This document shows, in pieces, positions 5,565 through 23,747 of a DNA stretch of 64,000 nt. Location of the stretch: contig CAVVXN010000003.1 of the NCBI GenBank assembly GCA_963752285.1, positions 320,001 through 384,000 on the forward strand, written 5' to 3'. The stretch is from an uncultured Planctomycetota bacterium. GTDB lineage: Bacteria > Planctomycetota > PLA2 > JAEUHO01. Within the stretch, counting starts at the first letter, position 1. The number at the start of each line of letters is the position of its first letter. The notes below the pieces were generated by a model that was given only the letters and a program-made list of their open reading frames with translations, was not told the DNA's origin and searched no databases. Both the position numbers and the translations under genes were made by a program.

Positions 5565-5608
5565 GGGCGCGCACGCGCGCCTCGATCTCGCGCGATAGAC
5601 TCCGGATC

Positions 5609-6937
5609 GTGTGGCGGCGCGCGATCCCGTTCGGTCTCCTCCTCGCGTTCACGGCGGCGGCGGGTGCGGGACCCGCGCGGTGGGACCGGAAGGCGGTCGA
5701 GCGCATCGCCGACCGCTGGTTCGAGGCCCGTCCGAAGACGCGCTTCGAGACGTGGGACGGGACGAAGCGCCGCGCGCTCCTGGCCGAGGCGGAGGCGTTC
5801 GGCCCCCTGCCCGAGGGCGCGCTCGACGACGTGCGGGACGTCTGCTTCAAGGCCGCGCGGAGGCAATGGCCCCGCGCGCCGAAGCACGAGATCGAGACGC
5901 CGTACGGCACGGCGGCGTGGGACGAGTCGGGACGGGGGGGGCCTCGCTCGGGCCTGATCCTCGGCCTCCACGGCGGCGGCGAGGGCCAGGGCGACAAGGG
6001 CGAGGCGAAGGGCACCTGGACGATGAAGGGCTGCCTCGGCGTGTACCCGCAGGGCATCCGCCTCGTGGACGACACGTGGAACACCGTCCAGGGCGAGGCC
6101 TTCTGCCTCACGCTCGTGGAGCGGGCGAAGGTCGTGGACGAGATCGACCCGGACCGGGTGTACGTGGCGGGCTTCTCCATGGGCGGGACGGGCTCCATGT
6201 ACCTCGCGTGCCGCCATCCCGACCTCTTCGCCGGCGCGATCCCGGCGCACGGCGTGATCATGGCGTCGCCGAAGATCAAGGTGAAGCGCGCCGAGGAGGT
6301 CGGGCAGATCCAGTACGGCCTCCTGCCCAACCTGAGGAATCTCGCCGTCTACTTCTACACGGGCAGCGACGACGACCACTGCGAGCCGGGCACGTTCCTC
6401 TACGCGTGGAACGCGATCCAGGGCTACCGGAAGGACGATCCCGAGGGCTACGGCGAGATTCGCTTCCAGGAGTTCCCGGGCGTCCGGCACACGTACCCGC
6501 CCGGCGAGCCGCACGCGGGGATCGAGTGGATCTCGAAGCAGCGTCGGAACCCTCTCCCCGAGAAGCTCGTGTGGGAGTACGCCACCGACCCGTTTCCGCT
6601 GCCGGACGCGGAGGACCCGATCGCGCGCCCGCAGAAGCAGTGGTTCTACTGGCTCCGCTCGGTGCGGCCCGCGGACGCCACGTTCGTGACCGCAAGGCGC
6701 GCGGGGAACGAGATCGACGTGGACGTGTCGAGCGGCGCGCCCGAGGACTTCGTGGTGTACCTGAACCCGAAGATGATCGACGTCGAGAAGGACGTGGTCG
6801 TGCGCGCGAACGGGAAGGAGGTGTACCGGGGGAGGCCCGTTCCCGACCTCGCGACCGTCCTCGAGAGCCTCGACGCGAAGCTCGACCGCTCGCTCGTGTT
6901 CGACCGGAAGGTCCCGCTCGGAGAACCGCTCAGGTGA
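5609..6937 (+). CDS. Secreted alpha/beta hydrolase (esterase/peptidase-like)
   Basis: C-terminal part of ORF 3824..6937; signal peptide MWRRAIPFGLLLAFTAAAGA; LHGGG oxyanion motif; IDPDRVYVAGFSMGG nucleophile elbow. Confidence 0.85.
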   Translation: MWRRAIPFGLLLAFTAAAGAGPARWDRKAVERIADRWFEARPKTRFETWDGTKRRALLAEAEAFGPLPEGALDDVRDVCFKAARRQWPRAPKHEIETPYGTAAWDESGRGGPRSGLILGLHGGGEGQGDKGEAKGTWTMKGCLGVYPQGIRLVDDTWNTVQGEAFCLTLVERAKVVDEIDPDRVYVAGFSMGGTGSMYLACRHPDLFAGAIPAHGVIMASPKIKVKRAEEVGQIQYGLLPNLRNLAVYFYTGSDDDHCEPGTFLYAWNAIQGYRKDDPEGYGEIRFQEFPGVRHTYPPGEPHAGIEWISKQRRNPLPEKLVWEYATDPFPLPDAEDPIARPQKQWFYWLRSVRPADATFVTARRAGNEIDVDVSSGAPEDFVVYLNPKMIDVEKDVVVRANGKEVYRGRPVPDLATVLESLDAKLDRSLVFDRKVPLGEPLR

Positions 6938-10199: not shown

Positions 10200-10844
10200 C
10201 TAGACGCGCGACCCGAGGTCCGTCAGGAGCTGCGCGAGGTCGTCGGCGTGCTCCTCCTCCTGCGCCAGGATCGACTCGAGCATCCGCCTCGTCGTGGAGT
10301 CCTTGTCGCCGATGAAGGCGATCATCTCGCCGTACGACTCGATGGCGATCCGCTCGGCGACCAGGTCCTCGCGGAGCATCTCCTCGAGATTGCTTCCCTC
10401 CACGTACTCGGCGTGGCTCCGCGTGAGGATCCCCTCGGGCGAGAAGTTCGGCTCGCCGCCGAGCTGCGTGATCCGGCCTGCGATCTGGTCCGCGTGAACC
10501 TGCTCGTCGTTCGCGTGCTGCAGGAACTCCTGCGCCGCCACGTCGCCGCGCACGCCCTGCGCCATGAAGTAGTGGCGCTTGTAGCGGAGCACGCACACGA
10601 TCTCGGTGGCGAGCGCCTCGTTCAGCAGCCTCAGGACGACGGGGCGGTCCGCGCGGTAGCCCTCGATGACCGCGCCCTCCTCCATGTGCCTCCGGGCCCG
10701 CGCGCGGATCGCCTGGATGTCGGAGACGAACGCGCCGACCGGCGCCTCGTGCCCGGTCGTCGCCGCCTGCGCCCGGCCGGCCTTCCCCGCGTCCTTCTTC
10801 CCGTCCCTCTTCGCGTGCTTCGCGCCGTCGTGATGCTTGCTCAT
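10200..10844 (-). CDS. Ferritin-like (bacterioferritin/DpsL-type) protein
   Basis: LNEALATEIVCVLRYKRHY, DEQVHAD, EDLVAERIAIESY, EEEHADD ferroxidase ligands; GGAGG RBS. Confidence 0.9.
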   Translation of the reverse strand: MSKHHDGAKHAKRDGKKDAGKAGRAQAATTGHEAPVGAFVSDIQAIRARARRHMEEGAVIEGYRADRPVVLRLLNEALATEIVCVLRYKRHYFMAQGVRGDVAAQEFLQHANDEQVHADQIAGRITQLGGEPNFSPEGILTRSHAEYVEGSNLEEMLREDLVAERIAIESYGEMIAFIGDKDSTTRRMLESILAQEEEHADDLAQLLTDLGSRV

Positions 10845-11712: not shown

Positions 11713-12783
11713 TCATGCCGGGAGCTGCTGGCTCAGGCAGTGGAGGGCGCCCAGCCCCTCGACGACGCGCGTCGAGCACAGCCCGACCACGTCGCGACCG
11801 GGGAACGCGCGGCGCAGGGTCCGTAGCGCCTTCTCGTCCTTCCGGCCGCCGAACGTGGGGACGACCACGGTGCAGTTCGCGACGTAGAAGTTCGCGTAGG
11901 AGGCCGGGAGACGGCGGCCGTCCCGGCCGAAGAGGGGGTCGGGCATCGGGAGCGTCCCGACCTCGAGCGGCACGCCGTCCTGGTCGGCCATCGAGCGAAG
12001 TCGCCTCGCGTCGTCCGCGAGCGGAGCGTGGTTGAGGTCCGACGGGTCGTCCTCCTGCGCCACCAGCACGTGCCGCGGGCCGACGAACCGGGCGACGTCG
12101 TCCACGTGCCCGTCGGTGTCGTCGCCCGCGATGCCCTCGCCGAGCCAGAGCACGTGCGTCGCGCCGAGCGTCTCGCGGAGCACCTGCTCGATCTCGGTGT
12201 CGAGGAGCGCCGGGTTCCGGTTGGGGTTCTTGAGGCACTGCGCGCTCGTGAGCAGCGTGCCGCGGCCGTTGCCGTCGATGCTCCCCCCTTCGAGAACGAC
12301 GTCCACGCGCCGCGTCGGCAGACCGTGGATGCCCTGGATCCGCCGCGGGACCCCGTCGTCGGGGACCAGGTCCGGGTACTTCCCGCCCCAGGCGTTGAAC
12401 CGGAAGTCGAGCGCGAGGCGCTCGCGTGTGCGGCCCCGGCCGCGGGCCACGACGATCGGGCCGTAGTCGCGGATCCAGGCGTCGTGCGTCGCGACGCGGT
12501 GGATCCGGACGCGGCGCGCCCCCGCCTCGGCGAGGCGGAGACGGGCCCGCGCCTCCACGGCGGCGTCCCTCGCGAGGACGTGCACCGTCTCGCCGCGGCC
12601 CACGGCCTTCGCGAAGAGCGCGAACACGCCCTCCACCTCCGCGAGGCCGTCGGCCCACGTCACCGGGTCGTGCGGCCACGCGAGCCAGGTCGCCTCGTGA
12701 CGCTCCCACTCGGCCGGCCACCGGTAGCCGAGCGCGCGCGGCGTGGGCCGCGCGAGACGGGCGCCCGTCCGTTCAGCGGCCAC
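11713..12783 (-). CDS. aguA: Agmatine deiminase
   Basis: PAEWERH..WLAWP, WIRDYGP, FNAWGGK, LEGGSID, DTDGHVD, ASYANF, GALHCLSQQ. Confidence 0.95.
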   Translation of the reverse strand: MAAERTGARLARPTPRALGYRWPAEWERHEATWLAWPHDPVTWADGLAEVEGVFALFAKAVGRGETVHVLARDAAVEARARLRLAEAGARRVRIHRVATHDAWIRDYGPIVVARGRGRTRERLALDFRFNAWGGKYPDLVPDDGVPRRIQGIHGLPTRRVDVVLEGGSIDGNGRGTLLTSAQCLKNPNRNPALLDTEIEQVLRETLGATHVLWLGEGIAGDDTDGHVDDVARFVGPRHVLVAQEDDPSDLNHAPLADDARRLRSMADQDGVPLEVGTLPMPDPLFGRDGRRLPASYANFYVANCTVVVPTFGGRKDEKALRTLRRAFPGRDVVGLCSTRVVEGLGALHCLSQQLPA

Positions 12784-13660
12784 CGGCGTCGCCGTCCCGG
12801 TAGCGGCGGAGCAGGTCGCCGTACGCGTCGATCCTCCGGTCGCGGAGGAAGGGCCAGCCGCGCCGCGCGCGGTCCACCGCGGTCATGTCGAGGTCGAGCA
12901 CGAGCACGGCCTCGTCCTCGCCCGCCTCCGCGAGGACCCGGCCGTCGGGCGCGACGACGAACGAGTGGCCCCAGAACCGGAGCTCGCCCTCCTGGCCGAC
13001 GCGGTTCACGGCCGCGACGTAGACGCCGTTCTCGATCGCGTGGGCGCGCTGGACCGTCCGCCACGCGTCCCGCTGCGTCTCGAGGAGGTCGAGCTCGCCC
13101 GTCCAGGTCCCGATGGCGGTCGGGAACACGAGCAGCTCCGCGCCCGCCAAGGTGACGAGGCGGGCCGCCTCCGGGTACCACTGGTCCCAGCACACGAGTG
13201 GGCCCACCCGGCAGCCGGGGCCGTCGAACGCGACGAATCCGAGGTCGCCGGGCGCGAAGTAGAACTTCTCGTAGAACCGCGGGTCGTCGGGCACGTGCAT
13301 CTTGCGGTAGAGGCCCGCGACCCGGCCGTCGGGACCGATCAGGACCGCCGTGTTGTGGTGGAGCCCGGCCGCGCGCCGCTCGAACAGGCTCGCGAGGACC
13401 GTGACACCCCGTGCCTTCGCGAACGCCGAGAGCGCCTCGGTCGTGGGCCCCGGGATCGGCTCGGCGAGGTCGAAGCACCGGGCGTCCTCGACCTGGCAGA
13501 AGTAGGGCGTGCGGAACAGCTCCTGCGTCGCGAGGAGCGTCGCGCCGCCGTCCGCGGCGCGACCGAGCAGGCCGAGGGTGCGGTCGAGGTTGTCCACCGC
13601 GTCCTCGGACGCGTGGGTCTGGACCAGGCCGACCCGGACGGGTGCGCGGCTCTCCTGCAT
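12773..13660 (-). CDS. aguB: Carbon-nitrogen hydrolase, N-carbamoylputrescine amidase-like
   Basis: QELF, YRKMHVPDDP.FYEKFYF.PGD, VCWDQWYPEAAR catalytic E-K-C triad; overlaps aguA. Confidence 0.9.
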   Translation of the reverse strand: MQESRAPVRVGLVQTHASEDAVDNLDRTLGLLGRAADGGATLLATQELFRTPYFCQVEDARCFDLAEPIPGPTTEALSAFAKARGVTVLASLFERRAAGLHHNTAVLIGPDGRVAGLYRKMHVPDDPRFYEKFYFAPGDLGFVAFDGPGCRVGPLVCWDQWYPEAARLVTLAGAELLVFPTAIGTWTGELDLLETQRDAWRTVQRAHAIENGVYVAAVNRVGQEGELRFWGHSFVVAPDGRVLAEAGEDEAVLVLDLDMTAVDRARRGWPFLRDRRIDAYGDLLRRYRDGDAGGR

Positions 13661-16826: not shown

Positions 16827-16950
16827 GTGGGAATTCTAGCCCGCAAGGCCCATGAACCGGCGCGAATCGCGCGCCCCTGGACACGCGAGGACCTCGACGA
16901 GAGCCGCCCGGCTCGGGCCGCGGCCTCCCGCGCGGACGGCGGGCCGAGAC

Positions 16951-16987
16951 GAAAGAAGGGCGTCGCACACGGGTGCGACGCCCTTCT
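16951..16987 (-). terminator. Intrinsic terminator downstream of the histone gene
   Basis: Perfect 15-bp stem AGAAGGGCGTCGCAC / GTGCGACGCCCTTCT with a 4-nt loop, ending in TTCTTTC on the minus strand. Confidence 0.75.
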
Positions 16988-17092
16988 CGATCGACAGGTC
17001 TCGGGGTCGGGCCTCGCGGGCCGGGGCCGCGCAGGATCGTGCGCGGCGCGCCGACGTCGCCAGCGACCCGGAACCGAGCCGTGCGTGTCCGG

Positions 17093-17329
17093 CTACAGGT
17101 CCTGGGGCCGGACGGTGCCGCGGTTGTTCGCCGAGCAGCGATGGACCGCGGCGGCGATCATGTCGTGCACCTTCGCGTTCAGCGCGTCGCCGAAGTCGCC
17201 GGCCATGCGCACGCCGCGCGACTTGATGGCTTCCTTCACCTTCGACGCGACGACGACGTTGGACGCCGGCTTGGCGCGTCCCGCCTTGCGCGCGGCCTTC
17301 TTCGCGGTCTTCTTCTTCCTTGCGGCCAT
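17093..17329 (-). CDS. Bacterial histone-fold protein (Bd0055/HBb-like) with Lys-rich N-terminal tail
   Basis: 78 aa; core VVVASKVKEAIKSRG...DALNAKVHDMIAAAVHRCSANNRGTVRPQDL has the helix 1 / long helix 2 / R-x-T-V-x-x-x-D-L histone L2 clamp; AGGAGG RBS; own terminator. Confidence 0.88.
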   Translation of the reverse strand: MAARKKKTAKKAARKAGRAKPASNVVVASKVKEAIKSRGVRMAGDFGDALNAKVHDMIAAAVHRCSANNRGTVRPQDL

Positions 17330-17612
17330 GAGCTGTCTGCCTCCTGTGGGGACAAGCCGGCTCCGAGAGCCGGACCATCGGGTGTGAAATACCGGGCGTA
17401 AACCTGCCCTGGAACCCGTTCGTTGCTGGAATCTACCAACGTCCCCCGGCGGCGACGCACAAGAAAAACCGCCCGGAAGGGCAGAATCCGTCGGTTTCGA
17501 GGCTCCGGGACGCCCGCTTCACCCCTCCCGGACACCCCCGTCGGGGCCCTTTCGGCTCCTCGTGTCGGTCGCCGCTGATAGGTTTCCTCGGTCTTCCGGG
17601 GCTCGCTCCACC

Positions 17613-19220
17613 ATGGTCGCCTCCTCCGAGATCACCACCGCCGAGCTGGACGTTCGACTCGTCAACGCGTTCGCGCGGCCGTTCGAGAACGCCGTCGCGA
17701 CGGCCAGGACCTGCTACTCCTCGCGGGGCATCGTGACCGAGGACGAGGTGTCGGGGAGACCGGACCTCTCGGAGGAGGACCGGGCCCGGAAGGCGGAGGT
17801 CCGCGACCGGATCGCGCGGTCGGTCTACGAGGCCGGACACCACACGACCCTCCAGCACGCGCACTTCCAGTTCGCCCTGAGCGGGGTGTCGCGGCAGTTC
17901 CTGTGGACCTTTCTCCACAGCCACCCCTTCTACAACTCGGAGCAGGTATCCCAGCGGTACGTGACCGTGAAGCCGGAGCACGTGGTGCTCCCGCCGCTGG
18001 AGGGGGAGGCCCGCGCGGTCTTCCTGGACCGCGTCCAGGGCCAGATGGCCGAGTACCGGGACCTGATCGAGCGCCTCGTGCCGGTCGCGGGTCGGGCCTA
18101 CTTCGCGCGCTTCCGGGCCCGCGCCCGGCGCCCCGAGCGGTACGAGAAGGAGATCCGGAAACGAGCGCAGGAGGTGGCCCGGTACGTCCTGCCCCTCGCG
18201 ACGGCGGCGTACCTCTATCACACCGTGAGCGGCCTCACGCTGCTCCGGTACTGGAGGCTCGCCGAGACGTACGACGCCCCGTTCGAGCAGCGCCGCGTGA
18301 TCGGGCGCATGGTCGATCTCCTGCTCGAGGCCGACCCGCTGTTCGGGCGGATCCTCGAGGAGCCCCTTCCGATCGAGGAGACCCCGGAGCACGCGTTCTA
18401 CCTGGCCGCCGGTCTCGGCGACGCCGGGGCGCCTCGCGAGCGCGACCAGTGGGCGGCCGAGTTCGACCAGGCGCTCGGCGGTCGTGTGAGCCGTCTCGTG
18501 GACCACAAGACGCGGAACGAGGAGACCGTGGCGCAGGCCGTGCGCGACGTATTCGGCGTCCCGTCGGCCCGGCTCTCGGACGACGAGGCGATCGACCTCG
18601 CGCTCGACCCGGCGAGGAACCGGATCCTCGGCGAGACGATGAACGTCACGACGCTCGACAAGCTGTCGCGGGCGCTCGTCCACGCGACCTACACGTTCCG
18701 GAAGCGCCTGTCCCACACCGCCGACAGCCAGGACCAGCGACACCGGATGACGCCCGCCTCGCGGCCCTGCCTCCGCGCCTACCTGTCGGACGCGCCCGAC
18801 GTCGTGACGCCGCGCCTGGTCCTCGAGGACGAGGGCTGCCGCCGGGCGTTCGAGGAGAGCATCGCGCGGACGTGGGAGGCGCTGGGTCGCCTCTCCGCGC
18901 TCGGCGCGCCGGACGAGATGCGCGCCTACCTCCTCCCGAACGCCGTCGCCCTCCGGTTCACCGAGTCGAGTGACCTCCTCAACCTGCACCACAAGCTCAA
19001 GATGCGGCTCTGCTACAACGCGCAGGAGGAGATCTGGCGCGCGAGTCGGGACGAGGCGGAGGAGGTCGTCCGCGTGAACCCGCGCCTCGGCCGCCACCTC
19101 CTCCCGCCGTGCACGCTGCGCCACCGCGCGGGCCGCGCGCCGATCTGTCCGGAGGGGACGCGCTACTGCGGCGTCCGCGTCTGGACGCTCGCGCCATCGG
19201 AGTGGGAGCGCGGGATCTGA
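17613..19220 (+). CDS. thyX: FAD-dependent thymidylate synthase with two tandem ThyX domains
   Basis: Domain 1: TARTCYS, GHHTTLQH, GVSR, SEQVSQRY, ARYVLPLA. Domain 2: QDQRHR, AYLLPNA, RLCYNAQEEI. Confidence 0.85.
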   Translation: MVASSEITTAELDVRLVNAFARPFENAVATARTCYSSRGIVTEDEVSGRPDLSEEDRARKAEVRDRIARSVYEAGHHTTLQHAHFQFALSGVSRQFLWTFLHSHPFYNSEQVSQRYVTVKPEHVVLPPLEGEARAVFLDRVQGQMAEYRDLIERLVPVAGRAYFARFRARARRPERYEKEIRKRAQEVARYVLPLATAAYLYHTVSGLTLLRYWRLAETYDAPFEQRRVIGRMVDLLLEADPLFGRILEEPLPIEETPEHAFYLAAGLGDAGAPRERDQWAAEFDQALGGRVSRLVDHKTRNEETVAQAVRDVFGVPSARLSDDEAIDLALDPARNRILGETMNVTTLDKLSRALVHATYTFRKRLSHTADSQDQRHRMTPASRPCLRAYLSDAPDVVTPRLVLEDEGCRRAFEESIARTWEALGRLSALGAPDEMRAYLLPNAVALRFTESSDLLNLHHKLKMRLCYNAQEEIWRASRDEAEEVVRVNPRLGRHLLPPCTLRHRAGRAPICPEGTRYCGVRVWTLAPSEWERGI

Positions 19221-19227
19221 CCCGTCA

Positions 19228-19319
19228 GGCGGGGACGCCCACCGTGGCGTCGTGGGCGGGTACGCCCACCGTGGCGTCATGGGCGGGGACGCCCACCGTG
19301 GCGTCGCGGGCGGGGACGC
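19228..19319. repeat. Tandem 27-bp palindromic (REP-like) repeat, 3 full copies plus a partial
   Basis: Unit GGCGGGKACGCCCACCGTGGCGTCRYG at 19228, 19255 and 19282, partial at 19309; internal inverted repeat GACGCC..GGCGTC. Confidence 0.9.
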
Positions 19320-19334
19320 GGACCCTGGCGACGG

Positions 19335-19817: not shown

Positions 19818-19997
19818 TTCAGGTCGGCCTCCAGCTCCGGAGCGCGCGGGCCCCCGACGCGGGCCTCCCCTTCCGGTCCGAGGCGGCCGGCCCGCCCCGA
19901 AGGAAGACCCCCGGACGGTAGTTCCCGGACAGCCGGTCGGCGAGGCGCGCGCTCGAGGAGGGGTGCCCGCGCCCCGCCGACCCGAGAAGGAGTGGGC

Positions 19998-22900
19998 ATG
20001 CGGATCCCGCGTCGGTTCACGGTGGCCGGGAAGGACCCCTACGAGGGCCTCGAGTGGGTGGAGCGGACCTCCCAGATCCGGAATCCCGACGGGACGGTCG
20101 TGTTCCACCTCGACCGCGTCCGGGTCCCGTCGGGTTGGTCCTCCGTGGCGACCGACGTCCTCGCGCAGAAGTACTTCCGGCGGGCCGGCGTGCCCCAGGG
20201 CGAGGGCGCCGAGGCCCCGGGCGGGCTCGGCGGCGAGAGCGACGCCCGTCAGGTGTTCCACCGCCTCGCGGGCTGCTGGACCCACTGGGGCCGACGCTAC
20301 GGCTACTTCGACGGCGAGGACGACGCGAAGGCCTTCTACGACGAGCTCGTCCGGATGCTCGCCGACCAGCGCGCGGCTCCGAACAGCCCCCAGTGGTTCA
20401 ACACCGGTCTCCACTTCGCGTACGGCATCGACGGCCCCCCGCAGGGCCACCACTACGTGGACCCCGAGACGGGCCGACTCCACAAGAGCAAGAGCGCGTA
20501 CGAGCGTCCGCAGCCGCACGCTTGCTTCATCCAGCGGGTCGAGGACGACCTCGTGGGCCCGGGCGGGATCATGGACCTGTGGGTGCGCGAGGGGCGCCTC
20601 TTCAAGTACGGGTCGGGCACCGGGACGAACTTCAGCGCGCTCCGCGCCGAGGCGGAGCCGCTCTCGGGCGGCGGGAAGTCGTCCGGGCTCATGTCGTTCC
20701 TGAAGATCGGCGACCGCGCCGCGGGCGCCATCAAGTCGGGCGGGACGACGCGCCGGGCCGCGAAGATGGTCTGCCTCGACGTGGACCACCCGGACATCGA
20801 GGCCTTCATCGACTGGAAGGTGATCGAGGAGCAGAAGGTCGCCGCGCTCGTGAGCGGCTCCCGCATGCTCGCCCGGTGCCTCGACGCCGTGATGGCGGCC
20901 TGCCACGCGGGGCCCGACGCCGACACGCGGTTCGACCCGAAGCAGAACCGTCGTCTCGCGGACGCGATGCGCGACGCGCGGCGTTCGATGGTCCCGGCGA
21001 GCTACGTGCAGCGCGCCATCGCGCTCGCCGGCCAGGGGCACACCTCCATCGAGATCCCGACGTACACGACGGACTGGGACGGCGAGGCCTACCTGACCGT
21101 CTCGGGCCAGAACAGCAACAACTCCGTCCGACTCTCGAACGGGTTCATGCAGGCCGTCCGCGACCAGGCGCCGTGGCCGCTGATCCGTCGGACCGACGGC
21201 GAGGTCGCCGACACGGTCCCCGCGCGACGGCTGTGGGACAAGATCGCGTACAGCGCGTGGGCCTGCGCCGACCCGGGCGTGCAGTTCGACACGACGATCA
21301 ACGAGTGGCACACGTGTCCGAGGGACGGGCGCATCAACGCGTCGAACCCGTGCTCCGAGTACATGTTCCTCGACGACACGGCGTGCAACCTCGCCAGCCT
21401 GAACCTCGTCACCTTCCTCGACCCCGCGACGGGGCGCTTCGACGTCGAGGGCTACCGCCACGCGATCCGGCTGTGGACGATCGTTCTCGAGATCTCCGTG
21501 CTGATGGCCCAGTATCCGAGTCGCGAGATCGCCCGACGCTCGTACGTGTACCGCACGCTCGGTCTCGGGTACGCGAACGTCGGATCGCTCCTGATGCGCC
21601 TCGGGATCCCCTACGACTCCGACGAGGGACGCGCGTGGACGGGCGCGCTCACGGCGATCCTCACCGGCGAGGCGTACGCGACCTCGGCCGAGATGGCCGG
21701 CCGGCTCGGGCCCTTCGAGGCGTTCGGGCGAAACCGCGAGGACATGCTCCGGGTCATGCGCAACCACCGCCGCGCCGCGTACCACGCGACGAAGGGCGAG
21801 TACGAGGGCCTGACCGTGGCCCCGCAGGGCCTCGACCCGACCCACGTCCCCGAGGACCTGCTCTACGCCGCCCGCGACGCGTGGGACCGCGCGCTCGATC
21901 TGGGCGAGCGTCACGGGTACCGCAACGCGCAGACGACCGTGGTGGCGCCCACCGGCACGATCGGGCTGGTGATGGACTGCGACACGACGGGCATCGAGCC
22001 GGACTTCGCGCTCGTGAAGTTCAAGAAGCTCGCGGGAGGTGGGTACTTCCGGATCATCAACGGTGCGGTGCCCGCCGCGCTCGCGCGTCTGGGCTACGCG
22101 AAGAGCCAGATCGACGACATCGTCCGGTACGTGAAGGGCAGCGGCACGCTCGTGGGCGCCCCCGAGATCGACGACCAGGCGCTCCGGCGCCGGGGCTTCG
22201 ACGACGAGGCGATCTCGAAGATCGAGGCCCAGCTCCCCGCGGCCTTCGACGTGGGCTTCGTGATCAACCGCTGGTCGCTCGGCGACGCGTTCCTCCGCGA
22301 CCGCCTCGGGATCGCGCCCGAGGTCTTCGAGGCGCCCGACTTCGACCTGCTCCGCCACCTCGGGTTCACGAAGGACCAGGTCCGACGCGCGAACGACGCG
22401 ATCTGCGGCACCATGACCGTGGAGGGGGCCCCGCACCTCCGGGACGAGCACCTCCCCGTCTTCGACTGCGCGTCCAAGTGCGGCCGGTACGGCAAGCGCT
22501 CGATCCACTGGATGGGGCACATCCGGCAGATGGCCGCGGCGCAGCCGTTCGTCTCCGGGGCGATCTCGAAGACGATCAACATGCCCAACGAGGCCCTGGT
22601 GGAGGACGTCGAACACGCGTACGAGACGTCCTGGCGCTCGATGCTGAAGGCCCTGGCCCTCTACCGGGACGGCTCGAAGCTGAGCCAGCCGCTGAACGCC
22701 GTGACCGACGACGACGACGACGCCGACCTCGCGGGGTCGGCGGAGACGCCGACCGCAGGGGGGAAGGTCGCCGAGGTGGCCCGCCAGGTCGCGGAGCGCG
22801 CGGTCGTCCGCTATCTCCGCGAGCGTCGCCGCCTCCCCTCGCGCCGGGGCGGGTACACCCAGAAGGCCACGGTCGGCGGCCACAAGGTCTACCTCCGGAC

Positions 22901-23747
22901 GGGCGAGTACGCGGACGGTCAGCTCGGCGAGATCTTCATCGACATGCACAAGGAGGGCGCGGCCTTCCGGAGCCTCATGAACTGCTTCGCGATCGCCGTG
23001 TCGCTGGGTCTCCAGTACGGCGTTCCCCTCGAGGAGTTCGCGGACGCGTACGTCTTCACGCGGTTCGAGCCGAACGGGATCGTGGACGGCAACGACCGGA
23101 TCAAGCTCTCCACGTCGATCATCGACTACATCTTCCGCGAGCTCGCCATCACGTACCTCGACCGCAAGGACCTCGCCCAGGTCACGAGCGAGGACCTCCA
23201 GCCGGACGTCGTTCGCCGGGACCCGGGGTCGGGCGGCGAGGAGCCGGCCGAGGGCGAGGAGCGCCCCGTGGAGGCCGAGACCGCGGAGGGCGAGCCCGTG
23301 GAGGCGCGGCCCGTGCCGAGGGTTTTCGCGCCGGAGACGATCCACCCGGTGAGCCGGGGCCTCGCGGGCGAGAACGGCCGGGCAGGGAACGGGAACGGGA
23401 ACGGGAACGGGAACGGCAAGAGCAACGGCAACGGCCACGCACACGGGAGCGGGCACGAGTCCGGCGGCGGCGCGGTCCCCGTCACGCCCGGACGGGAAGA
23501 CGTCGTCGCCGACGCGACCGCGCGGGTCCGCGGGTTCGCCCTCACCCCCGCGGGCGAGGCGGCGCGCGCCGCCGTGACGACCCCCGCCACGAACGGGCGA
23601 CGCGTGACGCTCTCCCACCAGGCCGTCCAGGCCCGGCTGAAGGGCTACACGGGCGACGCGTGCTCCGAGTGCGGCTCGTTCACGATGGTCCGGAACGGGT
23701 CGTGCCTCAAGTGCGACACGTGCGGCGGCACGAGCGGCTGCTCGTGA
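19998..23747 (+). CDS. nrdJ: Class II (adenosylcobalamin-dependent) ribonucleotide reductase with TSCPD domain and C-terminal Zn ribbon
   Basis: [63 protein letters not shown]; ends CSECG...[19 protein letters not shown]. Confidence 0.97.
23385..23414 (+). repeat. In-frame (GGGAAC)5 microsatellite encoding a Gly-Asn linker in NrdJ
   Basis: Five exact GGGAAC units. Confidence 0.9.

Follow-up and report, generated by a model that had tools for sequence, protein, structure and literature searches.

A face-to-face histone with a lysine-rich N-terminal tail encoded in a planctomycete genome

A 64,000-nucleotide stretch of DNA from an uncultured Planctomycetota bacterium (assembly GCA_963752285.1, contig CAVVXN010000003.1, positions 320,001 to 384,000; hereafter the window) contains a small gene on the minus strand, whose product joins a histone-like core to a strongly basic N-terminal tail. 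This locus raises the question of what kind of histone the protein is, and whether its tail has anything to do with the tails of eukaryotic histones. A preliminary description of the DNA had reported a 78-residue bacterial histone with a eukaryote-like tail containing the motif KAARK, and the open reading frame (ORF) does yield the protein quoted there. Bacterial histones have been characterized only from 2023 onward. To our knowledge, experiments have been carried out on two of them only, HBb (Bd0055) and HLp, neither of which has a long tail. Here we describe the gene as a genuine bacterial histone of the face-to-face (FtF) type, with a basic tail that is typical of the bacterial branch of this type.

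Histone fold and tetramer interface

In a phmmer search of the PDB, the best match was HLp from Leptospira perolatii (9qt0), which aligned with residues 23-77 of the window protein at an E value of 9.7e-10. HTkC from Thermococcus kodakarensis (9f2c) was second with 3.3e-4, and Bd0055/HBb from Bdellovibrio bacteriovorus (8cmp, 8fvx) followed at about 0.07. A word-indexed search gave 90 close homologues of 67-121 residues (90 of 100 candidates at E ≤ 0.001, the window protein included, down to E 5e-5), from which 34 were chosen to cover the range of identity and were aligned. The profile made from these 34 sequences matched HLp at 7.3e-22, HTkC at 4.3e-12, and HBb at 1.5e-9, with Asgard nucleosomal histones and NF-YB near 0.02.

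The AlphaFold2 model based on the 34-sequence alignment had a mean predicted local distance difference test score (pLDDT) of 80. The core was at 89-95 and residues 1-20 were at about 51. Two helices (residues 28-36 and 46-67) and a single helical turn (75-77) were modeled. When the model was compared with the PDB by Foldseek, HLp (9qt0 and 9qt1) was on top, with a template modeling (TM) score of 0.92-0.94 by target length, a root-mean-square deviation of 0.8-0.9 Å, and an identity of 46-47%. Lower ranks were occupied by HTkC (TM score of 0.90), HBb (0.81-0.85), and eukaryotic histones (approximately 0.4-0.55). The 78-residue protein is a histone of the α3-truncated kind. The preliminary description had proposed a histone fold like that of Bd0055. 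Both the confidently predicted core and the match to solved prokaryotic histones bear out the fold; as to the closest relative, HLp, and after it HTkC, are nearer than Bd0055/HBb.

The likeness to HLp includes, besides the fold, the truncated helix 3, the R/N/R residues of the tetramer, the RD clamp, the chain end one residue past the clamp Asp, and a disordered N-terminus before helix 1. HTkC shares the fold and the key tetramer arginine (R45, equivalent to R64 of the window protein), but it is archaeal, has no tail, and has Glu at the position of N68. What Bd0055/HBb shares with the window protein is the α3-truncated fold, an S-K motif where helix 1 begins, and the RD clamp, but the identity is 31-32% and the tetramer R and N are replaced.

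Schwab et al. (2024, PMC11390915) take two features as the definition of FtF histones, a tetramer in the shape of a ring and residues R48, N52, R54, T56, and D61 of their profile. In the window protein the corresponding residues are R64, N68, R70, T72, and D77, with identical spacing, and all five are invariant in the 34 aligned sequences. FtF histones have a helix 3 of only 3-4 residues and a shortened helix 2, and this form is present as well, as indicated by the modeled helices and by the TM scores with HLp and HTkC. According to Schwab et al., bacterial dimer histones are marked by the absence of R48 and N52; the profile alignment places S and D at these two positions in HBb. Unlike the Bd0055/HBb type, which has an RKTxxxD loop and no confident oligomer above the dimer, the window protein carries both R64 and N68, has RGT in the loop, and gives a confident tetramer model.

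The chain ends with D77-L78, and a DL end of this kind, one residue past the Asp, is found in 86 of the 90 homologues. For HTkC, a preprint (10.64898/2025.12.06.692711) reports that R45 contacts the C-terminal carboxylate belonging to the opposite dimer and that its replacement by Ala (R45A) leaves a dimer. The end of the chain directly after the clamp Asp fits the salt bridge between arginine and C-terminal carboxylate seen in that tetramer. For HLp (PDB 9QT0-9QT2), Hu et al. (2025, PMC12701072) give R49, S52, N53, R55, T61, and F63 as the tetramer interface. In the phmmer alignment the number of a window residue is that of the HLp residue plus 15, so that these positions correspond to R64, A67, N68, R70, Q76, and L78.

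A model of four copies of residues 22-78 reached an interaction prediction score from aligned errors (ipSAE) of 0.91 (median of three runs), compared with 0.02 for the best of three controls. Contacts agreed between runs to at least 98%, and the partner pLDDT was at least 94. Of the calibration proteins, 20 of the 30 solved as pairs passed the same mark, compared with 1 of the 23 solved as single chains. Besides the histone handshake, the model contains a second interface between the dimers, formed by residues 63-64, 67-68, 70, 74, and 76-77. This predicted dimer-dimer contact is the FtF interface.

The residues of HLp in contact with DNA are A13, S14, K15, K17, K21, T27, G29, T56, and T57 (PMC12701072), which map to A28, S29, K30, K32, K36, M42, G44, G71, and T72 of the window protein. 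Seven of these nine (A28, S29, K30, K32, K36, G44, and T72) are identical.

The N-terminal tail

The first 23 residues consist of 7 Lys, 3 Arg, 8 Ala, and others, without any Asp or Glu, which gives a net charge of +10; the Lys, Arg, and acidic counts of the preliminary description agree with this. The next in-frame start-type codon after the ATG is the GTG at codon 31, located in helix 1 past the invariant S29-K30. Translation from there would lose part of the helix, so that an intact fold always comes with the tail, and the tail must be translated. A start downstream of the tail, a possibility raised by the preliminary description, would fall at this GTG at the earliest. The opening codons of the gene are ATG GCC GCA AGG AAG AAG AAG. 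They are ATG GCA GCG AGG AAG AAG AAG and ATG GCT GCC AGG AAG AAG AAG in two related loci, L001 and L002; in other words, the tail is kept as protein while the DNA differs.

A basic N-terminal tail was found in all 90 close homologues, with a length of 12-66 residues (median 23) and a net charge of +4 to +26 (median +11). Acidic residues occur in only 10 of the 90 tails. The chain starts with MAARKKK in 38 homologues, with MAA[RK][RK]K in 55, and with MA in 84, and the positional entropy of the tails climbs steadily past residue 7. By a simple rule, 62 tails were classified as short K/R/A tails, 16 as short Gly-rich tails, and 12 as long tails (at least 40 residues) with AKK-type repeats. The tail is conserved in kind, and its sequence and length vary.

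When cluster representatives were searched exhaustively, 360 proteins reached E ≤ 0.001. Among the best 150 of these 360, 148 were new, and the core profile found 146 of them again; the two misses were proteins of 2794 and 765 residues. One fold is present in 113 of the 146 and two folds in 33. In this wider family, a basic tail was defined as at least 8 residues with a net charge of at least +3 and at least 20% K+R. Such a tail precedes the fold in 60 of the 113 single-fold representatives among these best matches; in 10 the fold comes after fewer than 8 residues, and the remaining 43 carry other extensions. The tail is therefore no oddity, given its presence throughout the close homologues and in these 60 representatives.

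Eleven genome loci were also compared. MAARKKK tails are found in L001-L003, the three metagenome-assembled genomes (MAGs) of Planctomycetota nearest to the window. They are absent from L010, a Planctomycetota locus that is more distant, and two Iainarchaeota loci and one other bacterial locus have no tail. A locus from an Actinomycetota MAG (L004) had no start codon near the fold among those listed and was left out of account for the tail. Two Bacteriovoracia loci, L007 (approximately 5870-6171) and L008 (approximately 5920-6162), have AKK-rich tails of approximately 25-32 residues, and in both a further ATG stands exactly where the fold begins (MLLVGSK and MLLVASK, respectively). Unlike the window gene, these two could give both tailed and tail-less forms.

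Other kinds of N-terminal region were seen among the relatives of the fold in the search of cluster representatives. Nine of them (P0092, P0096, P0101, P0104, P0108, P0120, P0135, P0198, and P0211) begin with a hydrophobic, signal-peptide-like N-terminus and a conserved ...AAR(A/S)SKPKE, followed by one or two histone folds, which hints at exported histone-fold proteins. Six more (P0114, P0150, P0151, P0171, P0213, and P0228), as read from the sequence, have a signal-peptide-like start and a stretch resembling an RNA-recognition motif (KLFVGNLP...) before the histone fold.

With respect to the solved structures, the tail is a clear difference. The crystals of HLp leave only its first 6-7 residues unresolved, and its alignment starts from residue 10, whereas the tail of the window protein has 23 residues and a charge of +10. 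The Bd0055/HBb chains align from their residue 4-5 and have no comparable tail, just as the preliminary description had said of Bd0055.

The composition of the tail stands out within the window. Lys accounts for 2.1% and Arg for 10.0% of the 15,080 residues encoded by 31 other ORFs of the window, compared with 30% Lys in the tail. Over the 90 homologues, K/(K+R) is 0.77 in the tails and 0.50 in the cores. According to a review (PMC10919886), lysine-rich tails can arise cheaply by extension of the reading frame into A+T-rich DNA. The window has a G+C content of 73% (0.67-0.77 in 2-kb windows), which makes this route unlikely, and the composition of the tail thus looks selected.

The motif KAARK equals residues 23-27 of eukaryotic H3. 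It was found in 6 of the 90 homologues, by eye at no fixed distance from the N-terminus. When the tail of the window protein was shuffled, KAARK appeared in 4% of the shuffles and the looser [KR]AA[KR][KR] in 22%. Used alone as a query against the PDB, the tail gave no chain at E ≤ 10, though many H3 chains are present there. These three results speak against homology of the tail to H3: KAARK is a low-complexity coincidence, which the preliminary description had itself allowed for. A basic tail is usual for bacterial FtF histones and marks no special link to eukaryotic H3. The motif is better described as low complexity of the KAAK/PAKK type, known from H1/H5 and mycobacterial HupB.

Mycobacterial HupB (PMC5676037) and chlamydial Hc2 likewise combine a small DNA-binding fold with a disordered extension of low complexity that is rich in K and A. 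HupB is described as having PAKK/KAAK motifs of the H1/H5 type and a tail needed for nucleoid association in vivo (PMC5676037). In contrast to these extensions, the tail of the window protein is on a histone and not on an HU fold, is N-terminal and not C-terminal, and is much shorter. The likeness is one of a possible way of working, not of common descent. Weak matches to Pfam HC2 were obtained for 2 of the 34 aligned homologues (best E value 0.0021) and are taken to come from the long tails of those two.

Proposed mode of action and its alternatives

HLp is reported to be a tetramer that wraps approximately 60 bp of DNA, gives fragments of 35-72 bp upon digestion with micrococcal nuclease, and reorganizes the nucleoid in E. 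coli (PMC12701072). HTkC supports the same picture. The window gene probably encodes an FtF α3-truncated histone that acts as a DNA-wrapping tetramer and nucleoid organizer, with its tail on the DNA surface. Two chains would form a handshake dimer, and two dimers would form a ring tetramer in which the contact is made by R64, N68, R70, and the C-terminal residues, at loop 2, the one-turn helix 3, and the last part of helix 2. If it behaves like HLp and HTkC, the ring would bind DNA without sequence preference, wrap approximately 60 bp around its basic rim, and serve as an abundant protein that organizes the nucleoid.

The tail leaves the fold directly ahead of the A28-S29-K30 motif at the start of helix 1. 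Since A-S-K is the "paired end of helices" contact, the tail is expected to emerge at the DNA-binding surface. With approximately +10 each and four per tetramer, the tails would most likely raise the non-specific affinity for DNA and neutralize charge on the wrapped DNA, and a tail may reach a neighboring duplex. The net charge of +14 per chain is made up of +10 from the tail and +4 from the core, so that the tetramer would carry about +56 instead of +16. By our own arithmetic, approximately 47% of the 120 phosphates of a 60-bp wrap would be neutralized with the tails, compared with 13% without them. Extra affinity and charge neutralization are the most likely roles of the tail, bridging of a second duplex or condensation is a possible one, and modification of the tail is speculative.

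As to the last of these, reversible acetylation of lysines or processing of the N-terminus might let the tetramer change from tight wrapping or bridging to loose binding and back. We regard such a switch as doubtful. The conserved start, which would read Ala-Ala-Arg-Lys-Lys-Lys after removal of Met, and the strong preference for lysine, set against roughly five Arg per Lys in the other proteins of the genome, would make the tail a target for modification. If this is true, control through histone tails would have a counterpart in bacteria, one that evolved independently of the eukaryotic form.

Several points weigh against the picture drawn here. In Pfam, DUF1931 (PF09123) stayed below its threshold for the window protein (E 0.025; 15.2 bits against a cut-off of 21.8), CBFD_NFYB_HMF (PF00808) gave no match, and none of the 34 homologues matched either of these histone families at E ≤ 0.01. 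The NCBIfam scan of the window protein was also without a match. This failed Pfam membership is a gap in the family models and not evidence against the fold. At the HLp interface S52 and T61 are replaced by A67 and Q76, and among the DNA contacts M42 and G71 differ from HLp. The calibration of the four-copy model was made with two copies, and the model may reflect memory of the solved HLp and HTkC tetramers; on both counts it shows likeness and is no proof of a tetramer. Hu et al. (PMC12701072) were unable to exclude bridging for HLp, so that wrapping is not the sole mode to be considered. The relatives studied by experiment are all at most 50% identical to the window protein, and no acetyltransferase or deacetylase family turned up among the 31 other window ORFs scanned.

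These points leave room for other explanations. HBb is a strict dimer that bends DNA (PMC12701072), and the window protein might likewise be a dimer that bends or coats DNA, with neither a stable tetramer nor wrapping. HBb is a detectable relative by both profile and TM score, two of the six HLp interface residues (A67 and Q76) differ, and the tetramer model could stem from the solved structures. Such a dimer is nevertheless unlikely, because HLp and HTkC outscore HBb by far in every search, the R64 and N68 that HBb replaces with S and D are invariant in all 34 sequences, and it is the absence of these R/N residues that marks the dimers of Schwab et al.; the loop, moreover, is RGT and not RKT. 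Another explanation concerns the tail, which might be a near-neutral or expression-related extension with no role at the DNA, for example a purine-rich mRNA start that aids initiation. Such tails are described as coming and going easily via extension of the reading frame (PMC10919886), and they vary widely in length and sequence. The first seven codons (ATG GCN GCN AGG AAG AAG AAG in the window, L001, and L002) are the most conserved part, which could be a constraint on the mRNA. We give this explanation little credit: a lysine-rich tail opposes the mutational bias of a 73% G+C genome, the net charge is positive in 90 of 90 homologues with acidic residues in only 10, and the tail leaves the fold beside the A-S-K motif that contacts DNA.

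A special job in place of general packing, for example as a regulator tied to the deoxynucleotide-synthesis neighbors or as an RNA-binding protein, is quite improbable. It would be suggested by the location of the gene next to thyX and a class II ribonucleotide reductase (RNR) gene in the window, near the RNR gene in L001 and L002, and next to the end of a dCTP-deaminase-like ORF in L001. Schwab et al. (PMC11390915) also caution that some prokaryotic proteins with a histone fold may not be global organizers. The conserved DNA contacts and basic rim, on the other hand, fit non-specific binding as in HLp, gene order among close relatives can be plain inheritance, the histone gene has its own hairpin past the stop codon, and thyX is on the opposite strand. 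Finally, open frames abound where the G+C content is high, and the ORF or its start codon might be an artefact of this: the window contains 243 ORFs of at least 60 residues, most of them spurious, and AGGAGG is common in it. The chance of this is negligible. The G+C content at the third codon position is 0.95 with 0.49 at the second, 90 homologues extend down to E 5e-5, the structure model is confident, and the MAARKKK start recurs in 38 of 90 homologues despite synonymous differences in the DNA, with no other start that gives the whole fold. As far as sequence analysis goes, an artefact is already refuted.

Genomic setting and place among known histones

The features of the histone gene are collected in Table 1.

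Table 1. Features of the histone gene and its flanks (positions in the window)
Feature	Position	Strand	Basis
Histone coding sequence, 78 residues; stop codon 17093-17095	17093..17329	-	ORF list, G+C by codon position, 90 homologues
Residues 1-23, disordered lysine-rich N-terminal tail (MAARKKKTAKKAARKAGRAKPAS)	17261..17329	-	Composition, pLDDT, homologues
Residues 24-78, α3-truncated histone fold with FtF signature	17096..17260	-	AlphaFold2, Foldseek, alignment
Shine-Dalgarno-like AGGAGG, 10 nucleotides upstream of the ATG	17340..17345	-	Sequence read; supportive only
G+C-rich hairpin of 16 bp, terminator-like, weak U tract	16953..16988	-	Folding of 16925-17000

The core reads NVVVASKVKEAIK...RGTVRPQDL. 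The ORF starts at the first start codon past the upstream stop, and its G+C content at the three codon positions (0.62/0.49/0.95) follows the same pattern as the other genes of the window. The ribosome-binding site of the preliminary description is present. AGGAGG occurs 135 times in the window, both strands together, and precedes a possible start in 4 of 32 ORFs by a generous test; being so common, it is weak, supportive evidence for the start and no proof. A sigma-70 promoter scan of the window found nothing, as expected for so G+C-rich a genome. The six-frame scan of the 64-kb window gave this ORF as the sole histone-fold match, with no second histone within that stretch.

The preliminary description had also assigned the gene its own terminator. 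A strong hairpin does lie approximately 105 nucleotides past the stop codon: the surrounding 76 nucleotides (16925-17000, minus strand) fold at -44.7 kcal/mol with a z score of -5.3, and none of 200 shuffles was as good. Its U tract is weak, and it is not among the terminators listed by a consensus scan, so that only the hairpin part of the assignment stands. By eye, a hairpin and a T-run are also found 3' of the histone gene in L001 and L002. With Rfam, no match at gathering scores was obtained anywhere in the window, and around the histone gene there was one chance-level match only (E 0.84).

A second terminator-like hairpin and T-run (CTGCCCTTCCGGGCGG then TTTTTCTTGT) is located at 17469-17484 on the minus strand, approximately 140 nucleotides upstream of the histone ATG. 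It sits in the 232-nucleotide spacer between the histone gene and thyX, on the strand of the histone gene, at a place where this strand has no gene end. A leader element, the remnant of a terminator, and chance are all conceivable. It should be mentioned, with regard to a remnant, that in L001 a gene does end just upstream of the histone gene. The end of the dCTP-deaminase-like ORF in L001 was seen by eye at approximately 5600-5787, just before the histone gene.

The gene order in the window is epimerase (+), GAF protein (-), histone (-), thyX (+), and class II RNR (+). In L002 the RNR, histone, GAF, and epimerase genes have the same order and orientation, and the same four genes follow this order in L001, with the insertion of an M55 peptidase gene. 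Between the window and L002 the RNR is 75% identical and the GAF protein 39% identical. This conserved neighborhood indicates that the histone gene is vertically inherited on the chromosome of a Planctomycetota lineage. Its location beside deoxynucleotide-synthesis genes is treated as the gene order of the lineage, not as a functional link. HLp differs in this respect as well as in phylum, since its neighbors in Leptospira are SMC and methionine aminopeptidase instead of RNR, thyX, and GAF.

Some further observations concern the surrounding genes. The thyX gene (17562-19220, +) encodes a ThyX of 552 residues with two Thy1 stretches, and the class II RNR (19992-23747, +) has 1251 residues. Between them, directly past the thyX stop codon, a 27-bp tandem repeat of 3.8 copies (89% matches) occupies 19228-19330; Rfam gave no riboswitch or other family in this spacer. 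A ferritin/Dps-like protein (10200-10844, -), with the Pfam Ferritin domain at residues 73-210, has an N-terminal extension of approximately 70 residues that opens with a basic stretch rich in Lys, His, Gly, and Ala, and may be a second tailed DNA-associated protein in the window. A protein of the Porphyromonas-type peptidyl-arginine deiminase family, which includes agmatine deiminases, is encoded at 11713-12783 (-) and adjoins a carbon-nitrogen hydrolase at 12773-13660 (-). This is the usual, ordinary pair for the conversion of agmatine to putrescine, and its sole interest here is that polyamines likewise neutralize DNA.

Much of what is found at this locus is already in print. Schwab et al. 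(2024, PMC11390915) count Planctomycetota among the main bacterial FtF lineages and report "H3-like positively charged tails" for most bacterial members of the type. The window protein agrees fully with such a tailed class and joins a known type; within its own clade, moreover, there is conservation of the first seven residues. According to Hocher et al. (2023, PMC10627809), Planctomycetota have retained histone genes, and long tails are lacking in most single-fold histones of bacteria. The present analysis goes modestly beyond these surveys with the clade-conserved MAARKKK start, the lysine bias in a 73% G+C genome, and the conserved neighborhood. The MAARKKK pattern may itself already be contained in Supplementary Figs 13, 19, and 20 of Schwab et al.

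The named homologues are proteins from Planctomycetota MAGs that are annotated as hypothetical. Pfam and NCBIfam are blind to the family, and the named records therefore say hypothetical protein, which amounts to an annotation gap. Apart from this gap and from its use as a test case, the gene is what is expected for the lineage and leaves the current picture unchanged. The Planctomycetota branch of the FtF family is known from sequence surveys only, and no experimental test of the function of basic tails in bacterial FtF histones was found in the literature. For such a test the gene is a clean and short case: the tail has 23 residues and a charge of +10, there is no alternative start, and the relatives offer tails of 12-66 residues. 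A comparison of tails could show their effect on wrapping, bridging, or condensation of DNA.

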